Positions 894 to 63,196 of a stretch of 64,000 bases of DNA are shown one piece after another. Numbering within the stretch: position 1 is the stretch's first letter; every line of letters begins with the position of its first letter. The notes below the pieces were generated by a model. That model did not search any database and was not told the DNA's origin. It saw only the letters and a program-made list of their open reading frames with translations. The position numbers and the translations under genes are program-made. The stretch is taken from the sequence record GU911519.1; one strand, written 5' to 3'. Source of the stretch: Acinetobacter phage Acj61.

Positions 894-1214
894 GTGAATT
901 TCCTCATTTCAAGTTAAGTTTAAGCATCTTTACGAGCAGTACCAGATTTACCAAAACGATCAACGTATGCATCAGTGATTACGTTAGCCCATTTAATTGC
1001 GGTTGATGTTGATTTGCAATCTTGGCACTAGCTACAGCGCAAGCAACTCGAGTCTAGACTTCACGTTCAGCCAACTCAAATTCAATGCTGACGTTGTGAT
1101 TAGTGGTTTTAGGTGAAACGTTATCAAAAATATTATCAGCGTTCATGTCATTTCCTTTTAAATGGATGTTTGATTTGATAGGACCATTATACCATGAATC
1201 CTATCAAAAGTAAA

Positions 1215-1454
1215 CTACTTTTTGCAATAATGATCAATTAATTCATTACAAAGTTCGTGGCTAATATCGATCTTGTAACACTCATAGATCGTTGAGGGCA
1301 GATAACTGTTATGTTCAGTGTAACCATGAGATACGATGAATCTCTTAATGTTATCCTTTAACTTTTTAGGTGCTCTACGAAAATATTCATCTATAGAGCA
1401 CTTGTACGTACGTTTCTCCCAGCGATTTCGGCATTGACGTTCTGAAAGGTTCAT
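1215..1454 (-). CDS. hypothetical small Cys-rich protein (79 aa)
   Basis: ORF whose start overlaps the stop of the 1451..2443 gene (ATGA coupling). Confidence 0.4.
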   Translation of the reverse strand: MNLSERQCRNRWEKRTYKCSIDEYFRRAPKKLKDNIKRFIVSHGYTEHNSYLPSTIYECYKIDISHELCNELIDHYCKK

Positions 1455-2443
1455 AGCATCATGATCTCCAATGCTTTGTTAAGAGTTTTGATGTCTGACT
1501 CAGTCCAAACGACTTGCTTGTCTAGTTCAGCCTGACGCTTTTTGATAGTTTCGAGTTCGGCATTCATAGCCTTAAGAGCATCATGACGAGATTCAAGTTT
1601 ATCTTTTATCGCATCAACAGCTACGTTAGCACCATGATTGAGCTCTAATGGACTCTTCATAAATTCACCTTTCTTTAAAACTACGACAAGGCAAGATGTG
1701 TCAACTTCAACACTTCGGACTATGTGCATCATTCGGAACATCTTGGCTAATGAATTGAGAATGCTTTTATACAATTCAGCTTCTTTAGGGCCAAGGCCTA
1801 CTGGTTGACCGGGCTTTTTCGTCAATTTGATACGAAGTACATCGCCGTGAGTACTTGCAGAATAATGTTCTGAATAGACAACAAAGCCCATGTATTCACA
1901 ACCGATATTTCCGCCACCTACATTGATTTTTTGTAGCTTTTGATTTGATCGATTATCTCGTTTAGCAAAACGTCCTTCGATGCCTAATAAATGAGGCCAT
2001 TGGCTACGTAATAATTTTAGTACTGCGTTTGAGCGATGCTGACTTGCATACACGAAATCAGTTGTAGCGCCTTTGATCAAAATCTGGTCGATGCCTTCTT
2101 TGTTTTTAAAGTGAGACATTGATCCGAACTGTTTGAGACGTTGACCAATCAGATATTGCTGCGCAACACGGGACTTCATAATTCGACGAGAAATTCGTTT
2201 GATATCGAATTCTTTAACTAGTGCAACGTCACCTCGAATCAAACTTTCTAAGTCAGCTTCATATTGATCAGAGAATCGATTTGAGATTCCAAATACAATA
2301 GAACGAATTAATGATTCACGATCAGGTATCACAGACAAATCATTTCGTGCAACGATATTTGCTACGCCTTGACGTTGACATTCACCTTCGAATGCTGTTT
2401 CGATAGTTCCAAGAACTAATTGTAAAAATTGAGTTTTATTCAT
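1451..2443 (-). CDS. hypothetical protein (330 aa)
   Basis: Long ORF, same strand as its neighbours. No motif recognised. Confidence 0.55.
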   Translation of the reverse strand: MNKTQFLQLVLGTIETAFEGECQRQGVANIVARNDLSVIPDRESLIRSIVFGISNRFSDQYEADLESLIRGDVALVKEFDIKRISRRIMKSRVAQQYLIGQRLKQFGSMSHFKNKEGIDQILIKGATTDFVYASQHRSNAVLKLLRSQWPHLLGIEGRFAKRDNRSNQKLQKINVGGGNIGCEYMGFVVYSEHYSASTHGDVLRIKLTKKPGQPVGLGPKEAELYKSILNSLAKMFRMMHIVRSVEVDTSCLVVVLKKGEFMKSPLELNHGANVAVDAIKDKLESRHDALKAMNAELETIKKRQAELDKQVVWTESDIKTLNKALEIMML

Positions 2444-2556
2444 CTCATGACTCCTCAGTCTATCTGTCCAGTAAATAATAAATTAGTAGTTGTATTGACC
2501 TGAAGGTATTGTATCATACATCCTCCAGGTAGCAATTAGTGGTTTAGATCAAATGA

Positions 2557-3471
2557 TCATTTTTTGTTCAAGCGAGCTTCCGAAACTACAAGAGCTTTAG
2601 CGAGAATATTGATGTCATTATTAAGCTCAAAGATTTCTCTTTCGAGAGCATCTTGTTTAGCCTTTAATGCTTTACGTTCTTCAGTCTTAGCCAATGACTC
2701 TTCACGAAGTTTATCAATAAGGTCTTGCAAAGGCAATTTAGGTGCTATAGGCCTGTTCATTTCACTATCAAGAATTTTATAATTGAATGAAATCCACGTT
2801 TCTCCGTGACCTTTTATTTGCATTGATTTAAATTTCAATTTTGTCATCTTGAGATAGGTTTTGATATCGTCAACTAATTCATTCGCTGGTACAGTTCGAT
2901 TGTGGCCTCGAATATTAACACCAATCTCTTTTGTGTTAGGCTGCAACACAAAGCTGAACTGTACACCTGAATTGCTAATATACTCATTTGGCTTGTACTG
3001 TTCTACACCATGATATGACTTATTACGACCTTTCAAACGGAGATATGCTTTAAAGCCTTGAGTAAATTCTCGTTTGAAAATTTCAAAGAATTGTGGGCTG
3101 ATGTAACCTTGCTCAAGGCGATACATTCCACGAAGTCCTTGGATGTAATAACGATCGCCATAACGATACATGTCAAACTGAGCATTGAGTGCTTTAGTAC
3201 TTGCGAGAACATTAGCAAACTTGTACTTTTTGATTTCTTGCATGATAGCAGGAACATCATAGTTGTACGGAGTCAAGTTAGGCACATATAATTTCTTGAC
3301 AACGTTATCTGCTAAGTGATGATTGAAGTCAAGAAGATTTGTACCATCAATAGCACGTTCAAGAATAAAGCGGATTTCTTGTTTGATGCCTTTGGTATCT
3401 CGACCAGCAAGATTGCCAATAAGACCTTCAAGTTCAGTTTTTACAAATTCGTTAATATCTTTTATAGTCAT
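2557..3471 (-). CDS. hypothetical protein with C-terminal coiled coil (304 aa)
   Basis: Long ORF. The C-terminus is heptad-like and K/E/A-rich. Confidence 0.55.
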   Translation of the reverse strand: MTIKDINEFVKTELEGLIGNLAGRDTKGIKQEIRFILERAIDGTNLLDFNHHLADNVVKKLYVPNLTPYNYDVPAIMQEIKKYKFANVLASTKALNAQFDMYRYGDRYYIQGLRGMYRLEQGYISPQFFEIFKREFTQGFKAYLRLKGRNKSYHGVEQYKPNEYISNSGVQFSFVLQPNTKEIGVNIRGHNRTVPANELVDDIKTYLKMTKLKFKSMQIKGHGETWISFNYKILDSEMNRPIAPKLPLQDLIDKLREESLAKTEERKALKAKQDALEREIFELNNDINILAKALVVSEARLNKK

Positions 3472-3545
3472 GATAATTTATCCATGTTAAGATGATAGTT
3501 CAATTATACACCAAAAAGGGAACCGTGTAAACAGTTCCCTTAAAA

Positions 3546-3986
3546 TTATTTACTCAATGTACGTTTGGCATTGATTTCGAATACTACTGCAGCAGGTGTG
3601 TAGTTAGGACCTGGGCCATCATATTCTTTTTCAAACGACATCTCCATTTGAGTCATGTCTTTGTGTTTGTACATAACTTCATAGAGTTTGCGAAGCTTGT
3701 TAACGTTGCCATTTGGAGCCTTGTAACGATAAGTCCAACAGTCGTCAAACGGGCGTTTATCGATTTGCTCAGCAATGTTCTTTTCTGCGAATTCGAAAAT
3801 CTTTTCAATTTCTTCAATACCAGATTCTTCGTTTTGGCGTCGTGTAATGAGTTCTTTAAAATTAAGCAAGAGAATGTACTCCTTTAGAGATTGCGTATGA
3901 GATTCGTGGCATCGCGAGTCCGGTGCCATAATTGAATGTGATGCCATCAACAGTTCGTTGTCCGTAAGACCCGATTTCGACACCAT
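3546..3986 (-). CDS. hypothetical protein (146 aa; true start probably an internal Met)
   Basis: The ORF overlaps the upstream gene by 124 nt, so the start is probably downstream. Confidence 0.4.
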   Translation of the reverse strand: MVSKSGLTDNELLMASHSIMAPDSRCHESHTQSLKEYILLLNFKELITRRQNEESGIEEIEKIFEFAEKNIAEQIDKRPFDDCWTYRYKAPNGNVNKLRKLYEVMYKHKDMTQMEMSFEKEYDGPGPNYTPAAVVFEINAKRTLSK

Positions 3987-4449
3987 TTAATTCAATGTCA
4001 ACTTCATGATCTTTTTCTTGAACAACTTCCAATTTGTCGCCAGATGGACGATATTTGTGAAAGAAGTCCCATGCGTCAAATTGAGGATTTCGATCAAAAC
4101 TAATCAATTCGAGCTTTAAGAAGATTTCAAAATGAGAATCATCAATGACTTCTTCATTGCGTTGGCAAGGAGTCAGAGCCATGAATGAACCATGTTGACT
4201 CATAGGACGTCCATTCTTTTCGTACTCTTTAATGAGTTGAATGAAACTTTGTTCAGCACTGCCTACATAGAACTTGCCTTTGCGATGATGCCTAGCGAAT
4301 CGATCTGTTGGCATCGTTACTTTGATTGCTTCCCAATCTACACACATTGGTACTGTGATCATTTTGTAACCACGAGATGCATAGAATTCTAGCGCATGGT
4401 ACAGCATAGGTAAATTGATTTCGAAACGTGAGTCCATATTATACTCCAA
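3862..4449 (-). CDS. class II aminoacyl-tRNA synthetase-like catalytic core, truncated (195 aa; AsnA/EpmA/AsxRS-like)
   Basis: Motif-2-like 'ALTPCQRNEEV..DSHFEIFLKLE' (FRNE-type) and motif-3-like 'GTGLAMPRISYA' (GLGIDR-type) in a 195-aa ORF. Confidence 0.5.
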   Translation of the reverse strand: MEYNMDSRFEINLPMLYHALEFYASRGYKMITVPMCVDWEAIKVTMPTDRFARHHRKGKFYVGSAEQSFIQLIKEYEKNGRPMSQHGSFMALTPCQRNEEVIDDSHFEIFLKLELISFDRNPQFDAWDFFHKYRPSGDKLEVVQEKDHEVDIELNGVEIGSYGQRTVDGITFNYGTGLAMPRISYAISKGVHSLA

Positions 4450-4576
4450 AACGGGTTTTGATAAATTCTTCTACAAGCTTGTAAGGTCTTAGAACTCCTG
4501 ATTTCTTAATTGCTGTTATGTGATAACCACTCATACTGATTTCCTCGTTGGGTTATTTGATAAGATCATTATACCA

Positions 4577-4607
4577 CAAAAGGCAGTTTGAAGTAAACTG
4601 CCTTTTT
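4577..4607 (-). terminator. intrinsic terminator followed by a TATAAT -10-like element
   Basis: Minus strand reads AGGCAGTTT-ACTTC-AAACTGCCT-TTTGTGGTATAATG. Confidence 0.55.
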
Positions 4608-4629
4608 AAATTATTTTCAATGTGTGACG

Positions 4630-5106
4630 TTATGATCCGAACAACACTGTACGTTCTGTTGCAGGGCAATACGATATACTAACAATCGAATGAATACCAA
4701 ACTCTCCGTATGGGAGAAATTCTTGTACGTATTCTCTGAGAATTTCGAATGCAGCCTCATAATACTCTTCAGGATTATCCGCATCTTCGTCTTCATCAAG
4801 TAGTGTGATGTCAATATTGTACAATTCTTGAGCAAGCATTCGAATCGTTTCGCGAACTGGCAGGTCAGTGCAATCATATTCAAATTGTGCCCAGTTGTGA
4901 CGAGTTTCACGAGGCATCTTCAACACTTTAGCAAGTGCTTCGATAAATTCGAGTTCTGTGTAGTCCTGAATGGTTTGATACACAGTGCCATTACTGGCAG
5001 TCAGTGCTGGCAATTCCATTGTGTCGACATCATTAATTGTATTTGTTGCTGTGATATAATCTGCATCATTTGTATCGCCAACGATAGTTAAGATGAATTG
5101 AGTCAT
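4630..5106 (-). CDS. hypothetical acidic protein (158 aa)
   Basis: ORF with a D/E-rich C-terminal half. Confidence 0.5.
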   Translation of the reverse strand: MTQFILTIVGDTNDADYITATNTINDVDTMELPALTASNGTVYQTIQDYTELEFIEALAKVLKMPRETRHNWAQFEYDCTDLPVRETIRMLAQELYNIDITLLDEDEDADNPEEYYEAAFEILREYVQEFLPYGEFGIHSIVSISYCPATERTVLFGS

Positions 5107-5115
5107 GATTAGCTC

Positions 5116-5340
5116 CTAAATTACTTTGTATTCGATTATGAATTTGAATCCAGAGATTGTTACTTTCATCTCTGCTACTTGTACATTATTAACCATCCAT
5201 TTGATAAGCATATTAGGATGGCACTCTTTTACAATGTCGTTTGGATAGCCATAAATTGACAACAAACGACGACAAATGTTATTCTCAGTTTCATAGAGCA
5301 GTTTGTGATACTCATCGAGAATTGAACCGACGTTAACCAT
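5116..5340 (-). CDS. hypothetical protein (74 aa)
   Basis: Small ORF tightly packed between neighbours. Confidence 0.35.
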   Translation of the reverse strand: MVNVGSILDEYHKLLYETENNICRRLLSIYGYPNDIVKECHPNMLIKWMVNNVQVAEMKVTISGFKFIIEYKVI

Positions 5341-5878
5341 GCCATTCTCCTAAATATTTTCGAGTTTCGGATTTTAGCCATACACAATTGTTGACTACGA
5401 CAAATTTTCGTAAACGCTTGTTGCTGTTCCACCACCAATAATCTGGATTCTGCAAATCTCGGATCATGTAACCAGCAGCGTTTCGATATGTTGCATAGTG
5501 CTTGTACTTTGGATTCGCTTTAATCTTTTTGATGATCTCATCTACCATTGCACATGGCTTGACCATCGATGCAACGATTCGATCAATGTTGTTCATTTCA
5601 ACTTTGAATCCATGCCAATGAGCAAATCGTCGACGTTCATAAGGACACATACCCCACTTCTGTTTTCGGTCATAGTGCATGTAAGTATTAGTACCTGTCA
5701 TAAACTTTTCGAGTTTACCAGATGGAATACCTGAAGTGTCAACATTAAAATCGCATCCCAGTTGCCAATCAAAGTGGTAGTCCCATGGCAAAGGCTCCGG
5801 TTCATATTCGAAATCCAATGTAAAGGGATCATAATCGTCGAATAGTGGATTTGGGAATTCATTAAACTTTCTTTGCAT
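5333..5878 (-). CDS. hypothetical protein (181 aa)
   Basis: ORF, W/Y-rich. Confidence 0.5.
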   Translation of the reverse strand: MQRKFNEFPNPLFDDYDPFTLDFEYEPEPLPWDYHFDWQLGCDFNVDTSGIPSGKLEKFMTGTNTYMHYDRKQKWGMCPYERRRFAHWHGFKVEMNNIDRIVASMVKPCAMVDEIIKKIKANPKYKHYATYRNAAGYMIRDLQNPDYWWWNSNKRLRKFVVVNNCVWLKSETRKYLGEWHG

Positions 5879-5892
5879 GTTGTGCTCCTGGA

Positions 5893-6153
5893 TTAAAGGA
5901 CCTTGTAGTTCTTTTTGATGATTGTGTTACCTTTAACGATTTTCTCAGGTCGATTCAGCCATTTGTAGATGTGAGGCTTAGTACCGAATGTGCCATTCAA
6001 AATATCAGTGATCATAATCGACTTGACGATGTTATGCAAACTTTCAACTTCAACGATATGTTTTGAAGTTCCATTTTCGATGAATTCCCAAGTTCTTGAG
6101 GATGTTCTAAAGTCTGGTGAATAAACTACTTTACTTACAATTGCGATTTTCAT
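5893..6153 (-). CDS. hypothetical protein (86 aa)
   Basis: ORF. Confidence 0.4.
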   Translation of the reverse strand: MKIAIVSKVVYSPDFRTSSRTWEFIENGTSKHIVEVESLHNIVKSIMITDILNGTFGTKPHIYKWLNRPEKIVKGNTIIKKNYKVL

Positions 6154-6163
6154 ATTTTTTCCT

Positions 6164-6189
6164 CAATGATATAAGGTTCTGATCGAATG
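6164..6189 (-). terminator. hairpin AGGTTCTG/CAGAACCT downstream of the AAA+ ATPase gene
   Basis: 8-bp stem, 10-nt loop, weak U-run. Confidence 0.35.
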
Positions 6190-6207
6190 ACCAGAACCTA
6201 GATTTAA

Positions 6208-7215
6208 TTAACGAAGTTGAGTAACTTCAGCGATTTCTTTCCAGTTTTGGCGATCAGTAATAACGAATGATGCAAGATATAATGCTGTACGAAGTGATAC
6301 ATTGCGAAGACGTTTAACATTATCTTTCATCCATTGCAAAACTTCTACTGTGTCTGCATCACTTAATCCAATACGTTGTAACATATCAGTTGTTGTAATA
6401 ACATCTTCAACTCGAACCATAATCTCTTCGTTTGTGTGAACTCCAAGATCAAGATAAACTGAACGAGATACTAAAGCCATAAGGTGAGGAGCAATTTTAG
6501 TACCACGTTGGATTTCATTATCTATATCGGTGTTTGTAATGAAAACGATTGTACCTTCAAATTCGAATTCATTTGGAATTTCTTTTTCTTCAAGGAAAGA
6601 TGAAGCAGTTGACCAACATACTTTGCGTTTCTCTCCAGAATCAAGTGCAGCTTTAAGAAGGTTTAGAACATCTTCAGAAGAGAAAACGTCTACGTCATCA
6701 AGAAGAAGTACTGAACCTTTCTCTTTAGCATCCCATAAGCGGCAGTATAAACCAATTCCAGAAATTTTACCATTTACTGATGCATAATCGATAATACCAT
6801 TATCATTTGCAGCTTGAAGATCACGATCAAGTGTATAAGTTTTCCCAATACCAGGTGCTCCAGAGATGATGAGAGAACGAATGCTTCCACCGATAATACC
6901 AGAAGTCATAAGATTCATTACGTTGAAGCGTTTGTTGATTCGTGCTTTCATTTCTTCAACTGATTCAACAACAATTGGAGCAGCTAAAGGAGCTTCAAGT
7001 TTAATTGATTGCGGAAGTTGACCTTCGATTTCGTAATCACCGTGGAATACCCAGATTCCGCGTTCTTTACCATTTAAGTTAATGATTACTTTACCATTAC
7101 CTTTATGAACTTCTGCAGGATGAAGTTCTTCAGGGAACCAAGTGTTTAGTAATTCAAATGTACCAGTAACTTCGTTTCCACGGAATGTACCTTTTTTGAT
7201 ATTTACTGTAGCCAT
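6208..7215 (-). CDS. AAA+ family ATPase (335 aa)
   Basis: Walker A 'GAPGIGKT', Walker B 'LLLDDVD', and an N-terminal domain of about 110 aa. Confidence 0.7.
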   Translation of the reverse strand: MATVNIKKGTFRGNEVTGTFELLNTWFPEELHPAEVHKGNGKVIINLNGKERGIWVFHGDYEIEGQLPQSIKLEAPLAAPIVVESVEEMKARINKRFNVMNLMTSGIIGGSIRSLIISGAPGIGKTYTLDRDLQAANDNGIIDYASVNGKISGIGLYCRLWDAKEKGSVLLLDDVDVFSSEDVLNLLKAALDSGEKRKVCWSTASSFLEEKEIPNEFEFEGTIVFITNTDIDNEIQRGTKIAPHLMALVSRSVYLDLGVHTNEEIMVRVEDVITTTDMLQRIGLSDADTVEVLQWMKDNVKRLRNVSLRTALYLASFVITDRQNWKEIAEVTQLR

Positions 7216-7317
7216 GATATTTTCCTCAATTTAAACTAAATGATATATTTGATTTGATAAGACTATTATACACTACTATGGAATCAAAGTAAACCATTTT
7301 GTGAAAATAAATTGAAA

Positions 7318-7479
7318 TTATTTCATAAAATGTCTACATACGACTTCTACTACCGAAGGATTAACTAAGCCATTTGTTGCTACCATAATTCGCTTTACCA
7401 AAGTCATTCGGTCACAGTCTGTCAAATTATTTTCTTCTAGATGAGCGATAAGTTGCTCTTTTGTCCACATGTTTCGCAT
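7318..7479 (-). CDS. small hypothetical protein (53 aa)
   Basis: Below the ORF-track threshold. Its ATG lies 2 nt after the TraR-like stop. Confidence 0.25.
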   Translation of the reverse strand: MRNMWTKEQLIAHLEENNLTDCDRMTLVKRIMVATNGLVNPSVVEVVCRHFMK

Positions 7480-7481
7480 AA

Positions 7482-7778
7482 CTACCTCAATTGGCTATCT
7501 TTTGAGCCGCGTCGATTGTAATAAGATTTGTGAACAGCGTCATGTTCACATTGATGTTTAATGCAGTACTGGACTCCTGGGACAGCCTTTCGTCTGCCTT
7601 CAGGAATAGGCTCATCACAATCAAGACAGAATTCTTCAGATTCACGCTTAGAAGCTAGTTCGAGTTCAAGTCTTGCCCAGTCAACAGCATCATCAATTGT
7701 TGCTTTGTTGGTTTCGAATACTGGATCGTTAGGTCCCCATCCGTTCATGATAATTTCCTCATTATTGCTTAAAGACAT
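7482..7778 (-). CDS. TraR/DksA-family C4 zinc-finger protein (98 aa)
   Basis: 'CLDCDEPIPEGRRKAVPGVQYCIKHQ', two CxxC pairs typical of zf-dksA/TraR. Confidence 0.65.
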   Translation of the reverse strand: MSLSNNEEIIMNGWGPNDPVFETNKATIDDAVDWARLELELASKRESEEFCLDCDEPIPEGRRKAVPGVQYCIKHQCEHDAVHKSYYNRRGSKDSQLR

Positions 7779-7785
7779 TATACTA

Positions 7786-7815
7786 CAAACGGAGAACTAA
7801 GTAAATAGTTCTCCG
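7786..7815 (-). terminator. intrinsic terminator followed by a TATAAT-like -10 element
   Basis: Minus strand reads CGGAGAACTA-TTTACT-TAGTTCTCCG-TTTGTAGTATAATG. Confidence 0.55.
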
Positions 7816-7822
7816 GAATTAA

Positions 7823-8104
7823 TTACATTGCAGAATATGCTAAAATCAAGATGAACAAGATCAGCATAGGAATAAACGACGATAGTTTCGTGATTTTTGA
7901 TTCAACATTCGAAACTCTGTTTGCGAAGTTTTGAGGAGACTTGATCACAAACTTGTTCTGCCATTCGAGCGAACTGATTGGAAATTCACAATCATTGTTC
8001 TTAACCCAAAGTGTGATCAAGTCACCAGACTTGCGAACTGATGAAATCTGGAAGATTTGCAGCATTGACCAAATGATGATGTATTGTCCTTCTTTGTACT
8101 TCAT
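7823..8104 (-). CDS. hypothetical protein (93 aa)
   Basis: ORF with a hydrophobic C-terminus. Confidence 0.4.
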   Translation of the reverse strand: MKYKEGQYIIIWSMLQIFQISSVRKSGDLITLWVKNNDCEFPISSLEWQNKFVIKSPQNFANRVSNVESKITKLSSFIPMLILFILILAYSAM

Positions 8105-8114
8105 GATGATCTCC

Positions 8115-9179
8115 TTAAACTCGATAGCCTAATGATTTCTCTACTTCGTAAAGATATGTGTTGTGAACAAAGTTTTCCCAGAATTGGCGATCAACTTTAG
8201 CTGGCATACCATTTTTGCCTGCTGTTACACATGCTTTATCAACATCGACGATCAGGTCTTCAAGACATTCTTGGAAGGCTTTGAAGTTGATTTCACCTGC
8301 TTTGATTTGCTTAACAAATTCAGCTTGTCCAAGTGGATACTTCAGATCGCCTGTTTGATAGATTTCAAGCAACTGGATTCCACCTCGATAAGCATGACTC
8401 AGAGCTTTCCAATCGATACCTTCATTTGACTCTGCTTGACGTGCTCGAGCTCCATATTCATCCCATACTCGAGCTAGTTTCTCTTTAAGCTCGGATACTC
8501 GAATTGTGAGTTGGTGTTTGCGTCCTAACACATTATAGAACTCATTACCTTTCTCATCGACTTCTAATGAAGCAAATTCATTAAGAGGCAGCTTATCTTT
8601 GAAGTCTTTCAACTTATTGATTCGAACTGTGCTGATGTGACCAAGCTCAGAGAAGTTTTGATGTTTCGTCATTGCTTCATCTAAAGCCTGTTTGGCAGAA
8701 ATGTGACGTTCATCAGGCAATGTTACTACAACTTCTAAGACTTGGCGAAGAGCTGCAAGACGAGTTCCTTTGATGCCATATTTTGCTGCTTGTTTCTTGA
8801 CATAGCCAAGATATGCTTTCATATCAGTTGTATAGAAACGATGACGATTCTTTTGAATGTAGTTCCAAGTTGCATTGTGTTCAGCGAAGTTTTGATGAAC
8901 AGGAGTGTGAAGCATATCAATTGCAATGGTTTCACCTTTGGAAGCTAATTCAATGAAGTACTTGAGAGAGTAGTATTCACGATCTACGTCTTCTGAAGTG
9001 TTCTTCGAATTCTTAGTGTTTGTATCACGATTAAAATGAGATGGACCATTGCCAAGGATGATTTCTCGTGCTGTTGGTAAGAAGATTGCTTTGAAATCTT
9101 GGTCGCTTGTTGGAGTGTTCGTGCCATAAAGAGTTGAACCAAAAACTCCGTCGAAAATGATTTTGTGATCGATATTCAT
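8115..9179 (-). CDS. Pol-beta superfamily nucleotidyltransferase (354 aa)
   Basis: N-terminal 'GSTLYGTNTPTSDQDF', the GS-x(9-13)-DxD hallmark. Confidence 0.6.
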   Translation of the reverse strand: MNIDHKIIFDGVFGSTLYGTNTPTSDQDFKAIFLPTAREIILGNGPSHFNRDTNTKNSKNTSEDVDREYYSLKYFIELASKGETIAIDMLHTPVHQNFAEHNATWNYIQKNRHRFYTTDMKAYLGYVKKQAAKYGIKGTRLAALRQVLEVVVTLPDERHISAKQALDEAMTKHQNFSELGHISTVRINKLKDFKDKLPLNEFASLEVDEKGNEFYNVLGRKHQLTIRVSELKEKLARVWDEYGARARQAESNEGIDWKALSHAYRGGIQLLEIYQTGDLKYPLGQAEFVKQIKAGEINFKAFQECLEDLIVDVDKACVTAGKNGMPAKVDRQFWENFVHNTYLYEVEKSLGYRV

Positions 9180-9235
9180 AATGATCTCCAGTTAATATAA
9201 GAGCAATTATACTACAATTTGTGTTGTGTGTAAAC

Positions 9236-9270
9236 TAAAAATGGGAATTATTTTGAAAATAATTCCCATT
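9236..9270 (-). terminator. 15-bp perfect palindrome terminator AATGGGAATTATTTT/AAAATAATTCCCATT
   Basis: Minus strand reads the palindrome followed by TTTTTAG, downstream of the 9276..9572 gene. Confidence 0.65.
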
Positions 9271-9275
9271 GGTTA

Positions 9276-9572
9276 TTAAGGACGAGGACGAAGTGGAGCG
9301 TACCAGGCACCGTTACTGTACTCAACATCGAATGGAGGCTTGATGTTATTCTTGTAAAGCAAGTTGCTTGTGAATGGCTCTACCGAGATTTCTTTAACTG
9401 AGCCATCAGGCCAGATAAATTTTGCTACGGGTACTTTGAAGAACGAGTTGTACCCAATTTCTGCTCGAAACTGAATGTGTACTTGAACCCCATTTTCTTC
9501 GATGATGTAGTATGCAGTGTGTCGAAGAAGTTGAGTTGCAATACGAGCTTGTGCTTCCATATTAATTTCCAT
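9276..9572 (-). CDS. hypothetical protein (98 aa)
   Basis: ORF that abuts the upstream gene (9572/9573). Confidence 0.45.
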   Translation of the reverse strand: MEINMEAQARIATQLLRHTAYYIIEENGVQVHIQFRAEIGYNSFFKVPVAKFIWPDGSVKEISVEPFTSNLLYKNNIKPPFDVEYSNGAWYAPLRPRP

Positions 9573-9962
9573 TTAATCTACGATTTCTATGATTGGACAT
9601 ACTTTAGCCTTTTTAGCTTTGAAGTATGCCATGATTACACCGTCTGGTGTAGTGTCATCAGAGATTTTGCTTTTCGTCATGTACACAATGTACCCGACTA
9701 ATGCACTGGCTCCGAGTCCAGTTATAAATGCTACAATGACTTCCAAAACTGGATGGATAATCTTGTAGTCAGATATCGAGAATGGATACCAAAGAATCAG
9801 GAATCCAATTAAAACAAAGAAGAATATTAATCCAGCTAACGCTGCTGCGACATGCAATACGCTGAATACGAGTTTCCAGAAATATCCACATAAAGACGTA
9901 GGAATTTCATTTTGCAAGAATTTGTGTAGACGATAGTGCCAAGATTGAGTACTTACTTTCAT
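9573..9962 (-). CDS. membrane protein, paralog A (129 aa)
   Basis: 'SWHYRLHK...SLCGYFW' N-terminus, 2-3 TM segments, C-terminal 'AYFKAKKAKVCP'. Paralogous to 9959..10453. Confidence 0.55.
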   Translation of the reverse strand: MKVSTQSWHYRLHKFLQNEIPTSLCGYFWKLVFSVLHVAAALAGLIFFFVLIGFLILWYPFSISDYKIIHPVLEVIVAFITGLGASALVGYIVYMTKSKISDDTTPDGVIMAYFKAKKAKVCPIIEIVD

Positions 9963-10453
9963 TTCTTCTCTCCATAAGTGAAGTTTAGCTTAGGGCAAAT
10001 TTTCTGGTGTTTCGAACGAATATATGCAACAACCAGATTGTCACTAGAGTTGATTCGTTCCGAGATGCCTTGGCCTTTGAATTTCTGTCCAAGCATACTT
10101 ATTCCAGCAGTGATTGCTATCATTAAGGCTAACAGCCCAAATGTTACTCCAACGGCTAAAGCAAACGTTATTGCACCTACTAAAATTACTACAGGGTACA
10201 TCCAAAATGAAAGTGAGTTAGCTGAAAGATTGGTACTGATCACATTCACAAGCCCAGCATCAGCTATTCCCATAAATGTTATGAATCCACAAATAAACAA
10301 TACTGCTCCGATAAAGGATACTATTGCAGTCAGAATTGCAGAGAACAATGCTGTTGTCCAGAAATATAGACATAAACTCGACGGGATTCTGTGATCGCTC
10401 TTGATAAACAGCTTATTGAGGCGGTAGTGCCAGGATTTCATGTCAATGTTCAT
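9959..10453 (-). CDS. membrane protein, paralog B (164 aa)
   Basis: 'SWHYRLNK...SLCLYFW', multiple TM segments, C-terminal 'AYIRSKHQKICP'. Overlaps paralog A by 4 nt (ATGA). Confidence 0.55.
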   Translation of the reverse strand: MNIDMKSWHYRLNKLFIKSDHRIPSSLCLYFWTTALFSAILTAIVSFIGAVLFICGFITFMGIADAGLVNVISTNLSANSLSFWMYPVVILVGAITFALAVGVTFGLLALMIAITAGISMLGQKFKGQGISERINSSDNLVVAYIRSKHQKICPKLNFTYGEKK

Positions 10454-24703: not shown

Positions 24704-25165
24704 ATGGCTACTATTTTACCAGAAGAATCGTTGCTTCCGGTCATTATGGAAGGTTCGAATTTCTCATTCACATTTACGAATACTCTTGAGGCAGATGAAG
24801 TTTTAGTTGATTTCAAAATCACTGAGACTGATATGCCTCAAGCTATCGCAATCAATGGACCAACGTTCAGTGGTAATTTCTCTGGACTATTTCAATTGCC
24901 TCCTGGCTCTCTCAAGTATAGATTAGGGAATGATCTACTTGAAGCTAGTTCATTTAATGATCTACCTCCAAAGGGAACTGCAGACTTGTACTCATACTCT
25001 GCTCCACGTCAAATGCTTAAGAATTTCAATATCAAAGTTGAATTGACTTACAGCAAAGGAGAGCCCGGTGCAGAGCAAGTCTTAAATATAACTAAACAGT
25101 ATACTCAACCTGTACAAGGCAATTGGGATACTTTCACAAATATGTTTTTAGCTTATGTGAGGTAG
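24704..25165 (+). CDS. gp5.1-like hypothetical protein (153 aa)
   Basis: ORF between gene 5 and the PAAR gene. Confidence 0.5.
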   Translation: MATILPEESLLPVIMEGSNFSFTFTNTLEADEVLVDFKITETDMPQAIAINGPTFSGNFSGLFQLPPGSLKYRLGNDLLEASSFNDLPPKGTADLYSYSAPRQMLKNFNIKVELTYSKGEPGAEQVLNITKQYTQPVQGNWDTFTNMFLAYVR

Positions 25166-57412: not shown

Positions 57413-58171
57413 ATGGCTAATATTATTCGATGCAAACTACCTGATGGCATTCATCGTTTCAAACCATTCACAGTGGCTGATTATCGAGATTTCTTGTTAG
57501 TGCGCAACGACATGCTTTCTAAAGAGATCAAAGAGCAAAAAGAACTTGTCAATGAACTGGCTGCTGATTATTTCAGTGAGTACCCAGAAACTTGGCAGCA
57601 ATACATTTTCTTGAATGTGTTCACAGGCTCGATCGGCAAAACGAAAATTCCAATTGTGTATGATTGTCCTAAATGTGGCAAAACACATAAGAGAATCTTC
57701 AATCTCGAGCAAGAACCACTAAGTGACCCAATACTTGAAATCAATGAAAGCACATCAGTACATTTCAAATTCCCTGAAGTCAATTCTGAAAACTTGCAAG
57801 AGTTAGTACTTCAAAATATCAAAGGCGTTACTCATGACGAAAAATTCTATGAGTGGTCTTCTCTTGATGAGCAAACAAAAGAGAATATTATTGATAGCAT
57901 TGATTTTGAATCGTTCGAGAAATTGATCAAGAATTTGAAGCCTATTCACTTTCAACTTAAATTGAAATGCTGTGGTAATGAGTCAAAAATTGTGTATGAT
58001 GACTTGCATTCAGTTTTCAATTTGCTAATTAATCCAGATGAAGTCTTTTCATTCTACGAGATCAATCACATTCTGATCAAGAACAAGTATGATCAACAAG
58101 CAGTGATGAACATGATTCCGATTGAACGAAGTATGGCTCTATCACTTATTGAAAGGGACAATAAAAAATGA
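57413..58171 (+). CDS. 51: gp51 baseplate hub assembly catalyst (252 aa)
   Basis: Size (T4 249 aa), synteny, CxxC pair. Confidence 0.65.
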   Translation: MANIIRCKLPDGIHRFKPFTVADYRDFLLVRNDMLSKEIKEQKELVNELAADYFSEYPETWQQYIFLNVFTGSIGKTKIPIVYDCPKCGKTHKRIFNLEQEPLSDPILEINESTSVHFKFPEVNSENLQELVLQNIKGVTHDEKFYEWSSLDEQTKENIIDSIDFESFEKLIKNLKPIHFQLKLKCCGNESKIVYDDLHSVFNLLINPDEVFSFYEINHILIKNKYDQQAVMNMIPIERSMALSLIERDNKK

Positions 58172-59754
58172 CAACTATGCAGAAGCCTGGGTATCCTAAC
58201 GTCAGTATCAAATTATACGAAAGTTACGATGCTTGGAAAGAAAATCGATTTGTTGAACTTGGCGCTACGTTCACAACACTCACTATTCGTGATGGGCTGT
58301 TCGGGCGAAATGAAGGCATGTTGCAATTCTATGACAATAAGAACATTCATACAAAAATGGATGGCGAACAGATTATTCAAATCTCATTGTCAAATGCTAA
58401 CACAAATGATGTCTTCAACCGAATTTATGGCATCAAACACTTTGCGACATCAGTCGATGAAAAAGGTGACAACATTATCGGTGTCGACTTAGCTCCATTG
58501 CACATTGTTGAACACTTGAAATTTTCTCGTGCGTTCTTTGCCAACGCTACTGAATCGATTCAAGAAATGATTCGAGTCATCTACGCTAAACGAGCCGAGA
58601 TTGCTCCTAAAGTTGAAGGAATCAACGTCTACGTACCTAAAGTTGCTTGGGTCAATGATATCGAAATGTACATGGACTATGTACGTGAGATCGGCATGGC
58701 TGTTGAATCAGAGACATTCGTATTCGCATGGGAAGACATGATCGGAATTCACTTACAGGACTACAAACAAATCAGCGAACAAGAAGCTCGTAAAATGGTT
58801 GTAGGTGACATCAATCAAATTGGTACATTCGTCCAGTCAATGGATATTGGACTTGCATACGAGTTTGTATGGCTTTCAAAAGCTAATAGATACGATCGTA
58901 ATCCAATGGAGAACGTGACGATTTATTCTCACTCATTCAATGACAAAGAAATCCAACGTGTGACACAAGACGAAGGTGCTAACTCGATTTATGTAACTCG
59001 TTCTGGCGGATATTCTGACATGACATATCGTAATGGATATGAAGAAGCTATTCGATTGCTTACAATGGCTCAATATGATGGTTATGCTCAGTGCAAAACT
59101 GTCGGTGATTTCACAATTCGTCCTGGCATGAAAATCAATTTTGGTGATCAGAAAAATCAGTTCAAGACTGATTTCTACGTCGATGAAGTCATTCATGAAA
59201 TTTCTAACAACTCATCTGTAACGAACATGTATATGTTCACTAACGGTAAGGCATTAAAACCTGTGGAAATCGAAAAAATCAAAAATGAAATTCCTACTTT
59301 GGAAACACCGAGCGAATCTGTTCAGCCTGAACCATCTGGCGACATTAAAGGTTCTGACTGGGACCTTGATAAAATGGCAACAGTTGTTACAAAGAATGCT
59401 CAAGGACGTAGTTCGACTGGTGATTGTGCATTATATGTTCGTAAAGCATTACAAGCATCTCAAATCAAACAGTTCTTTGCTGGTGGACTTGGACACGCTA
59501 ACCAAATGCCAACTCAACTTATTCGAATGAACTGGGTTGCGGTAGGCCAAAATGTAACCTCATGGAAGAAAGGCGACATCGTTGTTTTCCAACGAACAAA
59601 TACACGACTTGGACAAAAATATGGTCATGTTGCTATTTTCAACGGCTCACAGTGGGTATCAGATTTCATTCAACCAAGCGTCCAACCAAATCTAAAAGAT
59701 AATTTAACGTACACGCTGTACAGAGCTCGTTACGGCTACACTAAAGGTGCATAA
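58168..59754 (+). CDS. 27: gp27 baseplate hub protein with extra C-terminal CHAP/NlpC-P60-like cysteine peptidase domain (528 aa)
   Basis: N-terminal ~390 aa at the gp27 position. C-terminal ~130 aa has 'GDCALYVRKAL' and 'GHVAIF', a Cys/His pair about 65 aa apart. Confidence 0.7.
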   Translation: MTTMQKPGYPNVSIKLYESYDAWKENRFVELGATFTTLTIRDGLFGRNEGMLQFYDNKNIHTKMDGEQIIQISLSNANTNDVFNRIYGIKHFATSVDEKGDNIIGVDLAPLHIVEHLKFSRAFFANATESIQEMIRVIYAKRAEIAPKVEGINVYVPKVAWVNDIEMYMDYVREIGMAVESETFVFAWEDMIGIHLQDYKQISEQEARKMVVGDINQIGTFVQSMDIGLAYEFVWLSKANRYDRNPMENVTIYSHSFNDKEIQRVTQDEGANSIYVTRSGGYSDMTYRNGYEEAIRLLTMAQYDGYAQCKTVGDFTIRPGMKINFGDQKNQFKTDFYVDEVIHEISNNSSVTNMYMFTNGKALKPVEIEKIKNEIPTLETPSESVQPEPSGDIKGSDWDLDKMATVVTKNAQGRSSTGDCALYVRKALQASQIKQFFAGGLGHANQMPTQLIRMNWVAVGQNVTSWKKGDIVVFQRTNTRLGQKYGHVAIFNGSQWVSDFIQPSVQPNLKDNLTYTLYRARYGYTKGA

Positions 59755-60312
59755 ATGAACAAAATCAATTTAGACATTCGTCCAGTATTTCGTATGCTTT
59801 CAATTAATGGCAAAGACATCAAGATTCCTCGTCTCGGTTTAAAGCACCACGCAATTTTAAAGGACCCTAATGATCACGAGGACGCTATGAAAAAATTGAT
59901 GGCGTCTATCCATCCTAATTTATCTGCTGCAGAACGTGATTTGGTATCACTTCATTTGTTGGCATATAATGAACGTCTGAAACACTCAGTGGTCATTGAT
60001 GGCAATACATATACGGTGGATGATGTAATTATCAATCAAAAACTCAGATTCAATATAGGTGAAACTGAGTTCAAGTTCAAAACACCGAAACTTGAGAACT
60101 TGAATGCTACAATCCCGGAATTGTTACGTTCAAGTTGTGTGAGTGTTAAAGATGGTAATGGAAATCCACAGGAAATTCCAGACTTCTTACAAATGCCTGC
60201 ATATACATACAAATGGGCTGATGACATCTGTTCAACTATTGAACTTCGTACTTCTACAGGTAGTGTCAAAGGTCTTTATAAATTAATGGAGCTATTCGAT
60301 GGCGCAGCCTAA
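59755..60312 (+). CDS. 28: gp28 baseplate distal hub protein (185 aa)
   Basis: Size (T4 177 aa) and synteny. Confidence 0.65.
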   Translation: MNKINLDIRPVFRMLSINGKDIKIPRLGLKHHAILKDPNDHEDAMKKLMASIHPNLSAAERDLVSLHLLAYNERLKHSVVIDGNTYTVDDVIINQKLRFNIGETEFKFKTPKLENLNATIPELLRSSCVSVKDGNGNPQEIPDFLQMPAYTYKWADDICSTIELRTSTGSVKGLYKLMELFDGAA

Positions 60313-62092
60313 TCCACCAAAATCAGAACTTTTAGGAGTCAGTGGAGCAAATGATGAAGCAGTTACACGTAACGTACCAGCGCCTTTGAAGCGTCCGGCT
60401 GCTCAAACATCGTTTCGAAAAACACCAGCTCCTGATATGAAGGCAGCAAATGATGCATTAGATGATATTCGTGATCAAGTCTCTGATAAAGCTGACGATC
60501 CAATCGATACTCTTGATGCATCAAAACAGTCATTGGCATCTATTGACAATAAGATGTCACAACAAATCTCTGATAATTTAGCAAGTTCGATTGTTCAACG
60601 CCGATATGAAGGTACAATGATTGGCGAGACACAGAATATTTCTGCTAAGTTATCTTTGCTGTTAGGTAAATTGACCGAGATGCATGTTGATGCACAAGTC
60701 GAAGCAGCACAAAAGGATAACATCAAGTCTGAGCCAACTACATCTGAAGTGATTGGAGACTTGATCAAAAAGGAACAGCCAGAGCAAAAACCTGAAATTG
60801 CTGAAAAAATTCTCCCAACAGAAGAAAAGCCATCAACTAAATTACTTGATGAAAATGCTGGTAAGTCCGGCAAAGAGTTAGTTGGTAAAGCAAATCCAAT
60901 TGTGATGGGACTTGATAAAGTTGGTGGTCTATTAAAGACTGGCTTCAAATCAAGTATCGGAGTCATGGACAAAATTTCTGGTATGTTGTTCAAGTTCACA
61001 GCTACCCAAGCAATCAATGCAGCTAAAGTCGCAGCAGCGATCTTTGCAATTATTCTTGCTATCGATTTGATCAAAATTTACTGGTCAGTCTGGGGCGAGA
61101 AAATTATGGCTAAGTTGTCTGAATGGGCTGAAATTTTCAAAGGTTGGTGGGATACATTTACCGACTGGGGCTCTCAATTTTCTGACTTCAAGACAGCATT
61201 TGAAGGTATGGGTGCTAATTTGATGGAAATCAAAAATGCTTGGGTATCAGGAGATTTTCCTGCTCTGGCTAAAGCACTTGGTAATGCAATCATTGATATG
61301 GGCAAGACAATTTCGGGTATCATTGGCCGAACTCTGGCATCGCTTTTTGGTCCTCTGTTGCGAAAATTAGGCTTTGGAGAAACTGCTGATAATCTCGAAG
61401 CTGCTGGTCTGCGTCATTATCAAAATATGACTGACAACCGATTGAGTCCAGAGAACCAACGAAAACTTGCTGAAAATCAGGTCAAGCAAGAAGCTAAAGA
61501 TGGCAAAACAGCTACTGAACGTGGAATGACTGATTTCTTGCCTAACACATGGCGTAACAAACTTGGATTTATTTCCGATAACGAATTGAGTCAAATCAAT
61601 GCAGAGAAGAAAGATCAAAGTGCTCGTTCGAATTTATCACAAGAGCAAAAAGTTGATTCTGTTGCAGCTACAAATGAAGCTCGAGAAGCAATTGCCCGAT
61701 ATAAGAAATTTGCAGATGCAGCTAACCCTGATAATGCCGGAGATATGGCCAAAGTTGATAAATACAAGAAAGAAGCCGCACAATACTTGAGCAATAAAGC
61801 TCTGGATTTGACACCTTCAATCAAGTCTGAACTTCAAACGCAATACAACGCGATTAAAGTCAAGTCTAAAAAGGACGATGTCAAACCAGAAACTTCAGCA
61901 GCGAGTAAAGACACTCAAACCGTCAACTCGATCAAAACTGCCGAAGCAGCTAAAGCTAATCAGCAAACACAACAAACTAACGTCGCAAACGTTCAGAATA
62001 ATGTTGTCAAGAATAGCAAAACTGTTCATGTTCAGGCTCCAACAACTAGTACACGAGCTCCAGGTGTCCATAAGGCTACCGGAGTCAACTAA
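60299..62092 (+). CDS. 29: gp29 baseplate hub / tail length tape-measure protein (597 aa)
   Basis: Size (T4 590 aa), synteny, Ala/Lys-rich low-complexity regions. Confidence 0.75.
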   Translation: MAQPNPPKSELLGVSGANDEAVTRNVPAPLKRPAAQTSFRKTPAPDMKAANDALDDIRDQVSDKADDPIDTLDASKQSLASIDNKMSQQISDNLASSIVQRRYEGTMIGETQNISAKLSLLLGKLTEMHVDAQVEAAQKDNIKSEPTTSEVIGDLIKKEQPEQKPEIAEKILPTEEKPSTKLLDENAGKSGKELVGKANPIVMGLDKVGGLLKTGFKSSIGVMDKISGMLFKFTATQAINAAKVAAAIFAIILAIDLIKIYWSVWGEKIMAKLSEWAEIFKGWWDTFTDWGSQFSDFKTAFEGMGANLMEIKNAWVSGDFPALAKALGNAIIDMGKTISGIIGRTLASLFGPLLRKLGFGETADNLEAAGLRHYQNMTDNRLSPENQRKLAENQVKQEAKDGKTATERGMTDFLPNTWRNKLGFISDNELSQINAEKKDQSARSNLSQEQKVDSVAATNEAREAIARYKKFADAANPDNAGDMAKVDKYKKEAAQYLSNKALDLTPSIKSELQTQYNAIKVKSKKDDVKPETSAASKDTQTVNSIKTAEAAKANQQTQQTNVANVQNNVVKNSKTVHVQAPTTSTRAPGVHKATGVN

Positions 62093-62101
62093 GGAATAAG
62101 T

Positions 62102-63196
62102 ATGTTAGTAAAAGAAATCGTAGATTCCGAAACTAACCTCATCGAGCGAATCGGTAGCTTTGTTGCTGCCGGTCGCAGCTCAAAAGAGGAAGAATCAAAG
62201 ACAAAAATCTTTGAAGCACAATATCCCGATGGACGTGCAGCAGCGACAGATTCTGTTGACGATGCACGAATCCAAGACCTTTATGCAAATGGTTTGCTGT
62301 TCACTGCTGTCGAGTACAAAGGACGTACAACTCCTGAAATGACCGACATGCGTGGACAAGTAATGAAGAATATGGTCGATGCTATTGATCAAGCCAAAGG
62401 TGTCTTCAATCAACTTCGTGGTAAGAGCGGTGGCAATAAGAAAATTTCAAGTGCCATCAAAAATCCAGTTTGTCAAATTTTGTTGCCTCGTTCAAAGACA
62501 GACACTGACACAATTTCTCACAAGTTCAATGATGTTAATGAATCTCTTATCACACGTGGTAACGGTACAGCAACAGGCATCTTGTCGAACTTAGCATCAA
62601 CAGCAGTTTTTGGTGCAGTTGAGTCAATTTCACAAGGCGTTATGGCTGACCATGGTGAGCAAATTTATAACACATCACGTGCAATGTATGGCGGTGCTGA
62701 AAATCGTACAAAGACATACACATGGGAATTGACACCTCGAACTGAAGGTGACTTAGTACAAATCATTCGAATTTATGAGTTGTTCTCTTTCTTTTCATAT
62801 GGCGTGACAGGTAACTCTGCCTATGCTAAAGAAATCAAAGGACAAATTGATGATTGGTACAAAAAGACATTCATCAATAATTTGACACCAGAAGGTGCAG
62901 ATCGATCTGGGACAATGATGGAATCTGTTACTTCATTCTTGTCGAACGTGATTGTTGTCTCTAATCCGACAGTTTGGTTCATTCAAAACTTCGGTACAAT
63001 GACTACATACGATAAGCATGCTGACGTGTTTGGCCCAGCTCAAATTTCAAACATTCGTTTTGATAAAGCACCTGATGGAAATTTCAGTGGTCTTGCTATT
63101 GCACCTAACATGCCATCAACATTCGTATTAGAAATCACATTCCGAGAAATTCTTACACTTAACCGTGGCTCATTATATGGACGAGACGTACTATGA
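62102..63196 (+). CDS. 48: gp48 baseplate-tube junction protein (364 aa)
   Basis: Size identical to T4 gp48, synteny. Confidence 0.75.
   Translation: MLVKEIVDSETNLIERIGSFVAAGRSSKEEESKTKIFEAQYPDGRAAATDSVDDARIQDLYANGLLFTAVEYKGRTTPEMTDMRGQVMKNMVDAIDQAKGVFNQLRGKSGGNKKISSAIKNPVCQILLPRSKTDTDTISHKFNDVNESLITRGNGTATGILSNLASTAVFGAVESISQGVMADHGEQIYNTSRAMYGGAENRTKTYTWELTPRTEGDLVQIIRIYELFSFFSYGVTGNSAYAKEIKGQIDDWYKKTFINNLTPEGADRSGTMMESVTSFLSNVIVVSNPTVWFIQNFGTMTTYDKHADVFGPAQISNIRFDKAPDGNFSGLAIAPNMPSTFVLEITFREILTLNRGSLYGRDVL

Follow-up and report, generated by a model that had tools for sequence, protein, structure and literature searches.

Gene 27 of Acinetobacter phage Acj61 encodes a T4-type baseplate hub protein with a C-terminal Tae3-like peptidase domain, a candidate partner of the gp5 lysozyme

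The window analysed here is a stretch of 64,000 nucleotides from Acinetobacter phage Acj61 (sequence record GU911519.1), in which gene 27 encodes the baseplate hub protein gp27. Gene 27 is an uninterrupted open reading frame (ORF) with an ATG start and a TAA stop, and its product of 528 amino acids (aa) matches the baseplate hub family PHROG 1135 (E 3e-187). Two Pfam hub domains (PF09097 and PF09096) were detected, domain 1 at residues 5-199 and domain 2 at residues 204-374, both far over the gathering score (279 and 240 bits versus cut-offs of 27 and 25). T4 gp27 (391 aa; 1k28_D) aligns with residues 1-384 alone (E 2e-157), so about 145 C-terminal residues have no T4 counterpart. A sequence-only reading of the window, made without database searches, had proposed such a C-terminally extended hub, and the alignment bears this out. 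In the AlphaFold2 (AF2) model of the full protein, the hub core superimposes on T4 gp27 (9mkb_iC) with a template modelling (TM) score of 0.96 and an rmsd (root-mean-square deviation) of 1.4 Å over 375 columns. Residues 1-374 are a complete T4 gp27 hub. They are followed by a flexible linker, IPTLETPSESVQPEPSGDIKGSD, which is rich in Pro, Glu, Ser, and Thr, and whose first part (residues 375-385) is predicted to be disordered, with a predicted local distance difference test (pLDDT) score <50 in the same model. The remaining residues (398-528, about 130 aa) are a papain-like cysteine peptidase domain.

The only solved structure matched by the sequence of the extension was Tae3, a type VI amidase effector (family 3) from Ralstonia pickettii (4HZ9 chain A; phmmer E 3e-7), with 28% identity. 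The AF2 models of the peptidase domain have pLDDT values of 80-92. When a model of the domain derived from an alignment of 70 sequences (pLDDT 80) was submitted to Foldseek, Tae3 ranked first (E 1.3e-8, TM 0.85, rmsd 2.0 Å), and CHAP endolysins, Tae4, and the CHAP "cleaver" of the phage 812 hub protein followed far behind. Pfam CHAP (PF05257) was found at residues 415-491, scoring 26.9 bits when full-length gp27 was searched and 29.6 bits (E 1e-6) with the domain in isolation, and an NCBIfam search returned nothing relevant. The nearest characterised relative of the extension is Tae3, not a classical CHAP or NlpC/P60 enzyme, and the relation to NlpC/P60 is at the superfamily level only. With HMMER, an exhaustive search at E<=1e-3 gave 744 cluster representatives for the family to which the domain belongs; a word-indexed protein search with the domain alone gave 4 matches only, and the HMMER and profile searches recovered more. 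Matches of this strength and number go well past what chance would produce. Many members found by the profile search are free proteins of 120-180 aa; some members carry PAAR or peptidoglycan-binding domains, and the source of one member labels it VgrG. This make-up fits a type VI secretion system (T6SS) effector family. Several members (P0027, P0029-P0033, P0038, and P0086) contain two Tae3-like copies in tandem.

The motifs GDCALYVRKAL (residues 418-428) and GHVAIFNG (residues 486-493), in which the sequence-only reading had noted a Cys and a His spaced as in CHAP/NlpC-P60 domains, are both present in the extension and contain Cys420 and His487. These are the predicted nucleophile and general base, and they align with Cys23 and His81, the catalytic residues of Tae3 (PMC11796386). 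Residues Ser498-Asp499 align with Ser92-Asp93 of Tae3, of which Ser92 completes an unusual Cys-His-Ser (CHS) triad (PMC10318531). A Cys-His-(Asp/Asn) triad had been expected from the sequence-only reading. The Cys and the His are present; at the third position, for which CHAP enzymes use Glu, Asn, or Asp, the residue aligned with the Ser of Tae3 is Ser498, with an invariant Asp499 beside it, not Asp/Asn alone. Across the copies of the domain in the family, Gly486-His487, Asp499, and Gln502 are retained in 162/162, Ser498 and Gly469-Asp470 in 161/162, Arg519 in 159/159, and Cys420 in 152/161. Alanine replaces the nucleophile in 7 of 161 copies, which suggests the existence of paired active and inactive copies.

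We then compared 35 clusters of fused gp27, namely Acj61 gp27 and 34 others from a full-length search (518-534 aa, 53-99% identical). All 35 keep the seven signature residues, among them the Cys, His, Ser, Asp, and Gln mentioned above. Pairwise identity averages 0.674 in the peptidase domain and 0.649 in the hub core, against 0.342 in the linker, the length of which also varies among these homologues. Moreover, the divergences of hub core and peptidase domain correlate (r = 0.79). Because the residues are kept throughout, the domain is as conserved as the core, and the two parts diverged together, these comparisons indicate one old fusion, apparently inherited vertically, with its catalytic residues under purifying selection.

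By tblastn, about 70 deposited T4-like phages of Acinetobacter carry the extension, among them ZZ1, Acj9, Ac42, 133, Lazarus, and KARL-1. The extension is covered in only 68 of the 1379 phage records with a gp27 match, and gp27 of phages infecting other hosts has 368-406 aa in the full-length search. The sequence-only reading had suggested a check for a split gene in related phages; gp27 and the peptidase are always encoded by one gene among the approximately 70 Acinetobacter T4-like genomes. A split-gene ancestor was also considered, and none was found. Judged from these genomes, the fusion is a lineage trait. The description of the arrangement as unusual for T4-like baseplates is therefore apt across all gp27 records but not within the T4-like Acinetobacter phages, where it is the rule.

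The fused sequence is not new, as it has been public in phage genomes since 2010. The approximately 70 Acinetobacter phage records annotate the protein only as "baseplate hub", and the GenBank record of phage 133 carries the note "fused to Acinetobacter hypothetical protein". The BFVD entry for Acj61 gp27 (UniProt E5E4H6) is 99% identical over the peptidase domain, and an identical protein is encoded on a metagenome scaffold of 163,409 bp (ENA ERZ28616041, MUNK22-1 scaffold_7). At the nucleotide level, megablast of gene 27 against the phage collection gave short 76% matches only. Our literature search, whose coverage excluded subscription journals, found no paper proposing an enzymatic role for the gp27 extension. 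It is unmentioned in the ZZ1 genome paper, the 2010 review of T4-related genomes, two comparative papers on Acinetobacter phages, and a paper on tail-fibre domains. One member of the P0288 cluster, to which the AbTZA1-type gp27 belongs, bears the misleading NCBI name "LysM domain protein [Acinetobacter baumannii]": it is a hub protein of a phage that has been placed with a bacterial assembly.

The T4 gene order 25-26-51-27-28-29-48 is kept around gene 27 (Table 1). The start of gene 27 shares 4 bases (ATGA) with the stop of gene 51, and the ATG of gene 28 directly abuts the TAA of gene 27. Within the hub cluster 51-27-28-29-48, the position of gp27 matches the expectation for the T4 gp27 baseplate hub.

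Table 1. Coordinates of gene 27, its parts, and associated tail genes in the window
Feature	Position	Strand	Basis
Gene 27 (528 aa), baseplate hub protein ending in a peptidase	58168..59754	+	ORF; Pfam Phage-tail_1/Phage-tail_2/CHAP; PHROG 1135
gp27 hub core, residues 5-374	58180..59289	+	T4 gp27 1k28_D match; AF2 model
Flexible linker, residues 375-397 (about 23 residues)	59290..59358	+	pLDDT; low identity; variable length
Tae3-like papain-fold cysteine peptidase domain, residues 398-528	59359..59751	+	Tae3 match; Foldseek; CHAP; AF2
Codon of predicted nucleophile Cys420, aligned with Tae3 Cys23	59425..59427	+	
Codon of predicted general base His487, aligned with Tae3 His81	59626..59628	+	
Codons of Ser498-Asp499, aligned with Tae3 Ser92-Asp93	59659..59664	+	
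Gene 51, hub assembly catalyst, upstream neighbour	57413..58171	+	Pfam T4_baseplate
Gene 28, distal hub subunit, downstream neighbour	59755..60312	+	Pfam Phage_hub_GP28
Gene 29, tape measure/hub protein	60299..62092	+	Pfam T4_Tape_measure
Gene 48, tail tube cap	62102..63196	+	Pfam T4_tail_cap
Gene 5, central spike: OB fold, T4-type lysozyme (residues ~174-336), beta-helix; 591 aa	22926..24701	+	Pfam

The partner of gp27 in the spike, gp5, retains its T4-lysozyme domain, as the sequence-only reading had stated. Its Pfam domains are Gp5_OB, Phage_lysozyme, and Gp5_C, and it matches T4 gp5 (1k28_A) with E 9e-152 and T4 lysozyme with E about 1e-25. The lysozyme stretch reads MLRGDEGVKNQVYWDSLGYPTVGIGH; set against the T4 lysozyme sequence, the catalytic Glu, Asp, and Thr are presumably retained. 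Directly downstream of gene 5 lies a 153-aa ORF (24704-25165, + strand) without a Pfam match at E<=0.01. In the metagenomic contig k141_232034, the gene at the same position matches PF26906 (Phage_T4_Y07E), and a gp5.4-like PAAR gene comes after it.

From the architecture, homology, fold, and conservation described above we infer that the domain is catalytically active, which bond it cuts, that it lies next to gp5, and that it takes part in entry. gp27 is probably a bifunctional hub that bears a virion-borne Tae3-type peptidoglycan endopeptidase, aiding the gp5 muramidase in tail penetration. The linker would tether the peptidase, with Cys420 as nucleophile, His487 as base, and Ser498/Asp499 as orienting residues, so that each virion would carry three copies outside the hub ring and near the three gp5 lysozyme domains. 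A lumen-facing location of the domain was considered unlikely, as the reported 30 Å channel is filled by the three gp5 N-terminal domains. The spike would cross the outer membrane upon sheath contraction. Within the periplasm, glycan strands would be cut by the gp5 muramidase and peptide stems or cross-links by the gp27 peptidase, the two enzymes together making a gap through which the tube fits. Judging from Tae3, the bond cleaved would most likely be the D,D cross-link between meso-diaminopimelic acid (mDAP) and D-Ala. Tae2 and Tae3 families have been reported to hydrolyse mDAP-D-Ala cross-links (PMC3852654), and Tae17 of A. baumannii has a Tae3-like domain that degrades peptidoglycan, an activity abolished by a Cys-to-Ala substitution (PMC11796386). 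In T4, the gp27 ring remains at the tube tip and the gp5 lysozyme works in the periplasm, and gp27 tolerates a C-terminal tag consisting of a tobacco etch virus (TEV) protease site and 11xHis (PMC11054660).

Several points weigh against this bifunctional hub. The C-terminal region of T4 gp27 contacts the gp5 N-domain, and the C-terminal tag slightly lowered the titre (PMC11054660); a 14-kDa domain might therefore clash with its neighbours or need another placement. The AF2 model of gp27 is a monomer, and the position of the domain in the trimer is outside its reach. The presence of full-length fused gp27 in the virion is assumed, the bond specificity is extrapolated from an enzyme of 28% identity, and the need for a second enzyme is unexplained with the gp5 lysozyme intact. 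The Pfam scores count here too. The sequence-only reading had called the extension CHAP/NlpC-P60-like, and of this the papain-like Cys/His peptidase holds. The CHAP score is marginal, just passing the cut-off of 26 bits; NlpC/P60 (PF00877) stays below its cut-off of 23 bits (14.7 bits, E 0.03), the nearest family being Tae3 instead. Tae4 (PF14113) likewise does not reach its cut-off of 27 bits (18.3-21 bits; Foldseek TM ~0.45-0.5).

The Tae3-like domain was also found in other gp27 fusions. In two metagenomic proteins (P0371 and P0380), gp27 is followed by a Tae3-like domain, which keeps the Cys and His and has Ala in place of the Ser, and then by a VanY peptidase; gp5 of this phage has an SLT transglycosylase in place of the T4 lysozyme. 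In a third metagenomic protein, P0381, the Tae3-like domain after gp27 has decayed, with Cys and His lost, and behind it stands a genuine CHAP domain that brings Cys/His motifs of its own. The replacement of the decayed domain by CHAP argues that catalysis is the selected function. In a metagenomic T4-like phage (ENA ERZ27239165 contig k141_232034, locus positions 4407-10235), hub, Tae3-like domain, and VanY make up a 744-aa gp27. Its gp5 comes as two proteins, one of 506 aa with OB and SLT (lytic transglycosylase) parts and a separate beta-helix protein of 237 aa, after which a PAAR protein is encoded. Going by its sequence, this hub may combine up to three different wall-degrading activities. 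In a 698-aa gp27 on Logan SRR26448212_630 (1154-3813), the Tae3-like domain has Ser for Cys and Tyr for His, and a genuine CHAP domain comes after it; genes 27 and 28 are separated by an additional ORF of 188 aa without a Pfam match.

Outside gp27, the nearest relatives (P0006-P0026) are metagenomic proteins of 1000-2900 aa that are 45-54% identical to the domain and carry a T6SS_VgrG3-like_C lysozyme domain. The middle part of one of them, P0012, resembles tape-measure/tail proteins of Burkholderia phages Magia and BcepSaruman. These proteins may be jumbo-phage tail proteins. Some are encoded on contigs of 281-300 kb. A Tae3-like domain that is 37-38% identical over 93 aa is present in CPT_0185 of Campylobacter phage CP220 (1159 aa, locus positions 1742-5221), annotated as "hypothetical phage membrane protein". 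Since its gene lies directly upstream of a gp48-like tail tube cap gene, CPT_0185 is probably the tape measure; the CP21 homologue is annotated as "endolysin". The same family was found by BFVD in a metagenomic "tail tape measure". Taken at face value, these occurrences make the Tae3-like module a recurrent putative virion-associated wall hydrolase.

A wider interpretation is possible, which we offer only tentatively and hold to be less likely to be right than wrong. The C-terminus of gp27 in T4-like phages might serve generally as a docking site at which peptidoglycan-peptidase "effector" modules can be exchanged (Tae3-like, Tae3-like with VanY, or decayed Tae3-like with CHAP), the Tae3 family being shared by phage tail proteins (hub and tape measure) and T6SS effectors. 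The second enzyme might then be required because the envelope of Acinetobacter, like that of the hosts of the related phages, withstands the gp5 muramidase on its own. Such resistance could, speculatively, stem from O-acetylation or unusual cross-linking of the peptidoglycan.

Other explanations of the fused domain were weighed against an entry endopeptidase. The domain may be an active cysteine peptidase or amidase with another target or timing, acting as an N-acetylmuramoyl-L-alanine amidase, as a D,L-endopeptidase, or in cleavage of protein-peptidoglycan tethers, or else during lysis-from-without, in superinfection, or as a free enzyme after linker cleavage. Tae families of the same fold cut differing bonds (PMC3852654), the CHAP family includes amidases, the identity to Tae3 is low, and the linker is exposed and protease-accessible in the AF2 model. 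However, another substrate has no positive evidence in its favour, the nearest structure that has been characterised belongs to a cross-link endopeptidase, and a role in entry is the simplest explanation for a location at the injection tip; we thus consider this explanation unlikely. Somewhat less probable still is a non-catalytic domain, whose papain fold would only bind peptidoglycan or stabilise the baseplate. An inactive CHAP-fold "clip" domain does exist in the weld protein of phage 812 (PMC13433997), DUF1175 being a further example, and the loss of Cys and His in P0381, like the Ala-substituted family copies, speaks for such a domain. In contrast, Acj61 and all the fused gp27 clusters keep the Cys, His, Ser, Asp, and Gln, and the P0381 lineage, having lost these residues, gained a replacement CHAP domain, which argues that catalysis is maintained. 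Finally, an artefact, in which gene 27 was joined to a separate downstream lysin gene through misassembly, a frameshift, or the loss of a stop codon, has the match of Acj61 gp27 to a metagenome scaffold to its credit and hardly any probability, as a single ORF of 518-534 aa occurs in about 70 independently sequenced isolates and 35 clusters, no split version was found, and gene 28 begins directly after the stop.

If the Tae3-like domain is active, T4-like Acinetobacter phages would breach the wall with a muramidase and a cross-link peptidase on one tip, a departure from the T4 textbook model, and a T6SS effector family would be tied directly to phage tail hardware. A small predicted peptidase of about 14 kDa, naturally exposed on the virion and shaped by evolution to act on Acinetobacter peptidoglycan, would also be a candidate component of lysins engineered to target A. 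baumannii. Furthermore, the annotation of about 70 therapeutic-phage genomes, which name the protein as "baseplate hub" only, can be corrected.

Compared with the gp27-gp5 device of T4 (PDB 1K28, 5IV5, 9MKB), the Acj61 hub has a core of the same fold and about 59% identity, the same gene order, and a gp5 with OB, lysozyme, and beta-helix parts. It differs in that T4 gp27 ends at residue 391 without an enzyme, whereas the Acj61 hub would carry two enzyme types. Tae3 (PDB 4HZ9) is the best match in sequence and structure, with conserved Cys/His/Ser positions; it is, however, a free protein of about 120-150 aa that is delivered by the T6SS and paired with a Tai3 immunity gene. The Acj61 domain is fused to a phage hub and flanked by genes 51 and 28, without an immunity gene. 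By this analogy, the domain may work like Tae3 and yet, given its fusion to gp27 and its neighbours, is not a T6SS effector.

The hub of Staphylococcus phage 812/K with its CHAP "cleaver" (PDB 9EUF, 9EUM) is likewise a gp27-like hub with an appended Cys/His peptidase, and both of its parts were recovered in the fold searches (ranks 7 and 19 in the domain search, rank 15 in the full-protein search). Its CHAP domain is lytic, as proven by zymogram (PMC13433997). Unlike the Acj61 protein, with which it has no detectable sequence homology, it serves a phage of a Gram-positive host and has a Cys-His-Glu triad; its spike lacks a separate lysozyme, and its active site is covered by the weld protein, which has no T4 counterpart. 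"Evolved" VgrG proteins such as V. cholerae VgrG3 also combine a gp27-like module with a covalently attached wall-degrading effector in a contractile injection device, and the VgrG3-like_C domain co-occurs with the nearest non-gp27 relatives of the Acj61 domain. The effector of VgrG comes after the gp5-like beta-helix, at the very tip, whereas in Acj61 the peptidase follows the gp27 module and gp5 is separate. Exchangeable modules at the C-terminus of gp27 would mirror these evolved VgrG spikes. Tape-measure and tail proteins with embedded hydrolases share the same Tae3-like family (CP220 and metagenomic proteins), but are ejected through the tube, whereas the Acj61 domain would be tethered outside the hub.

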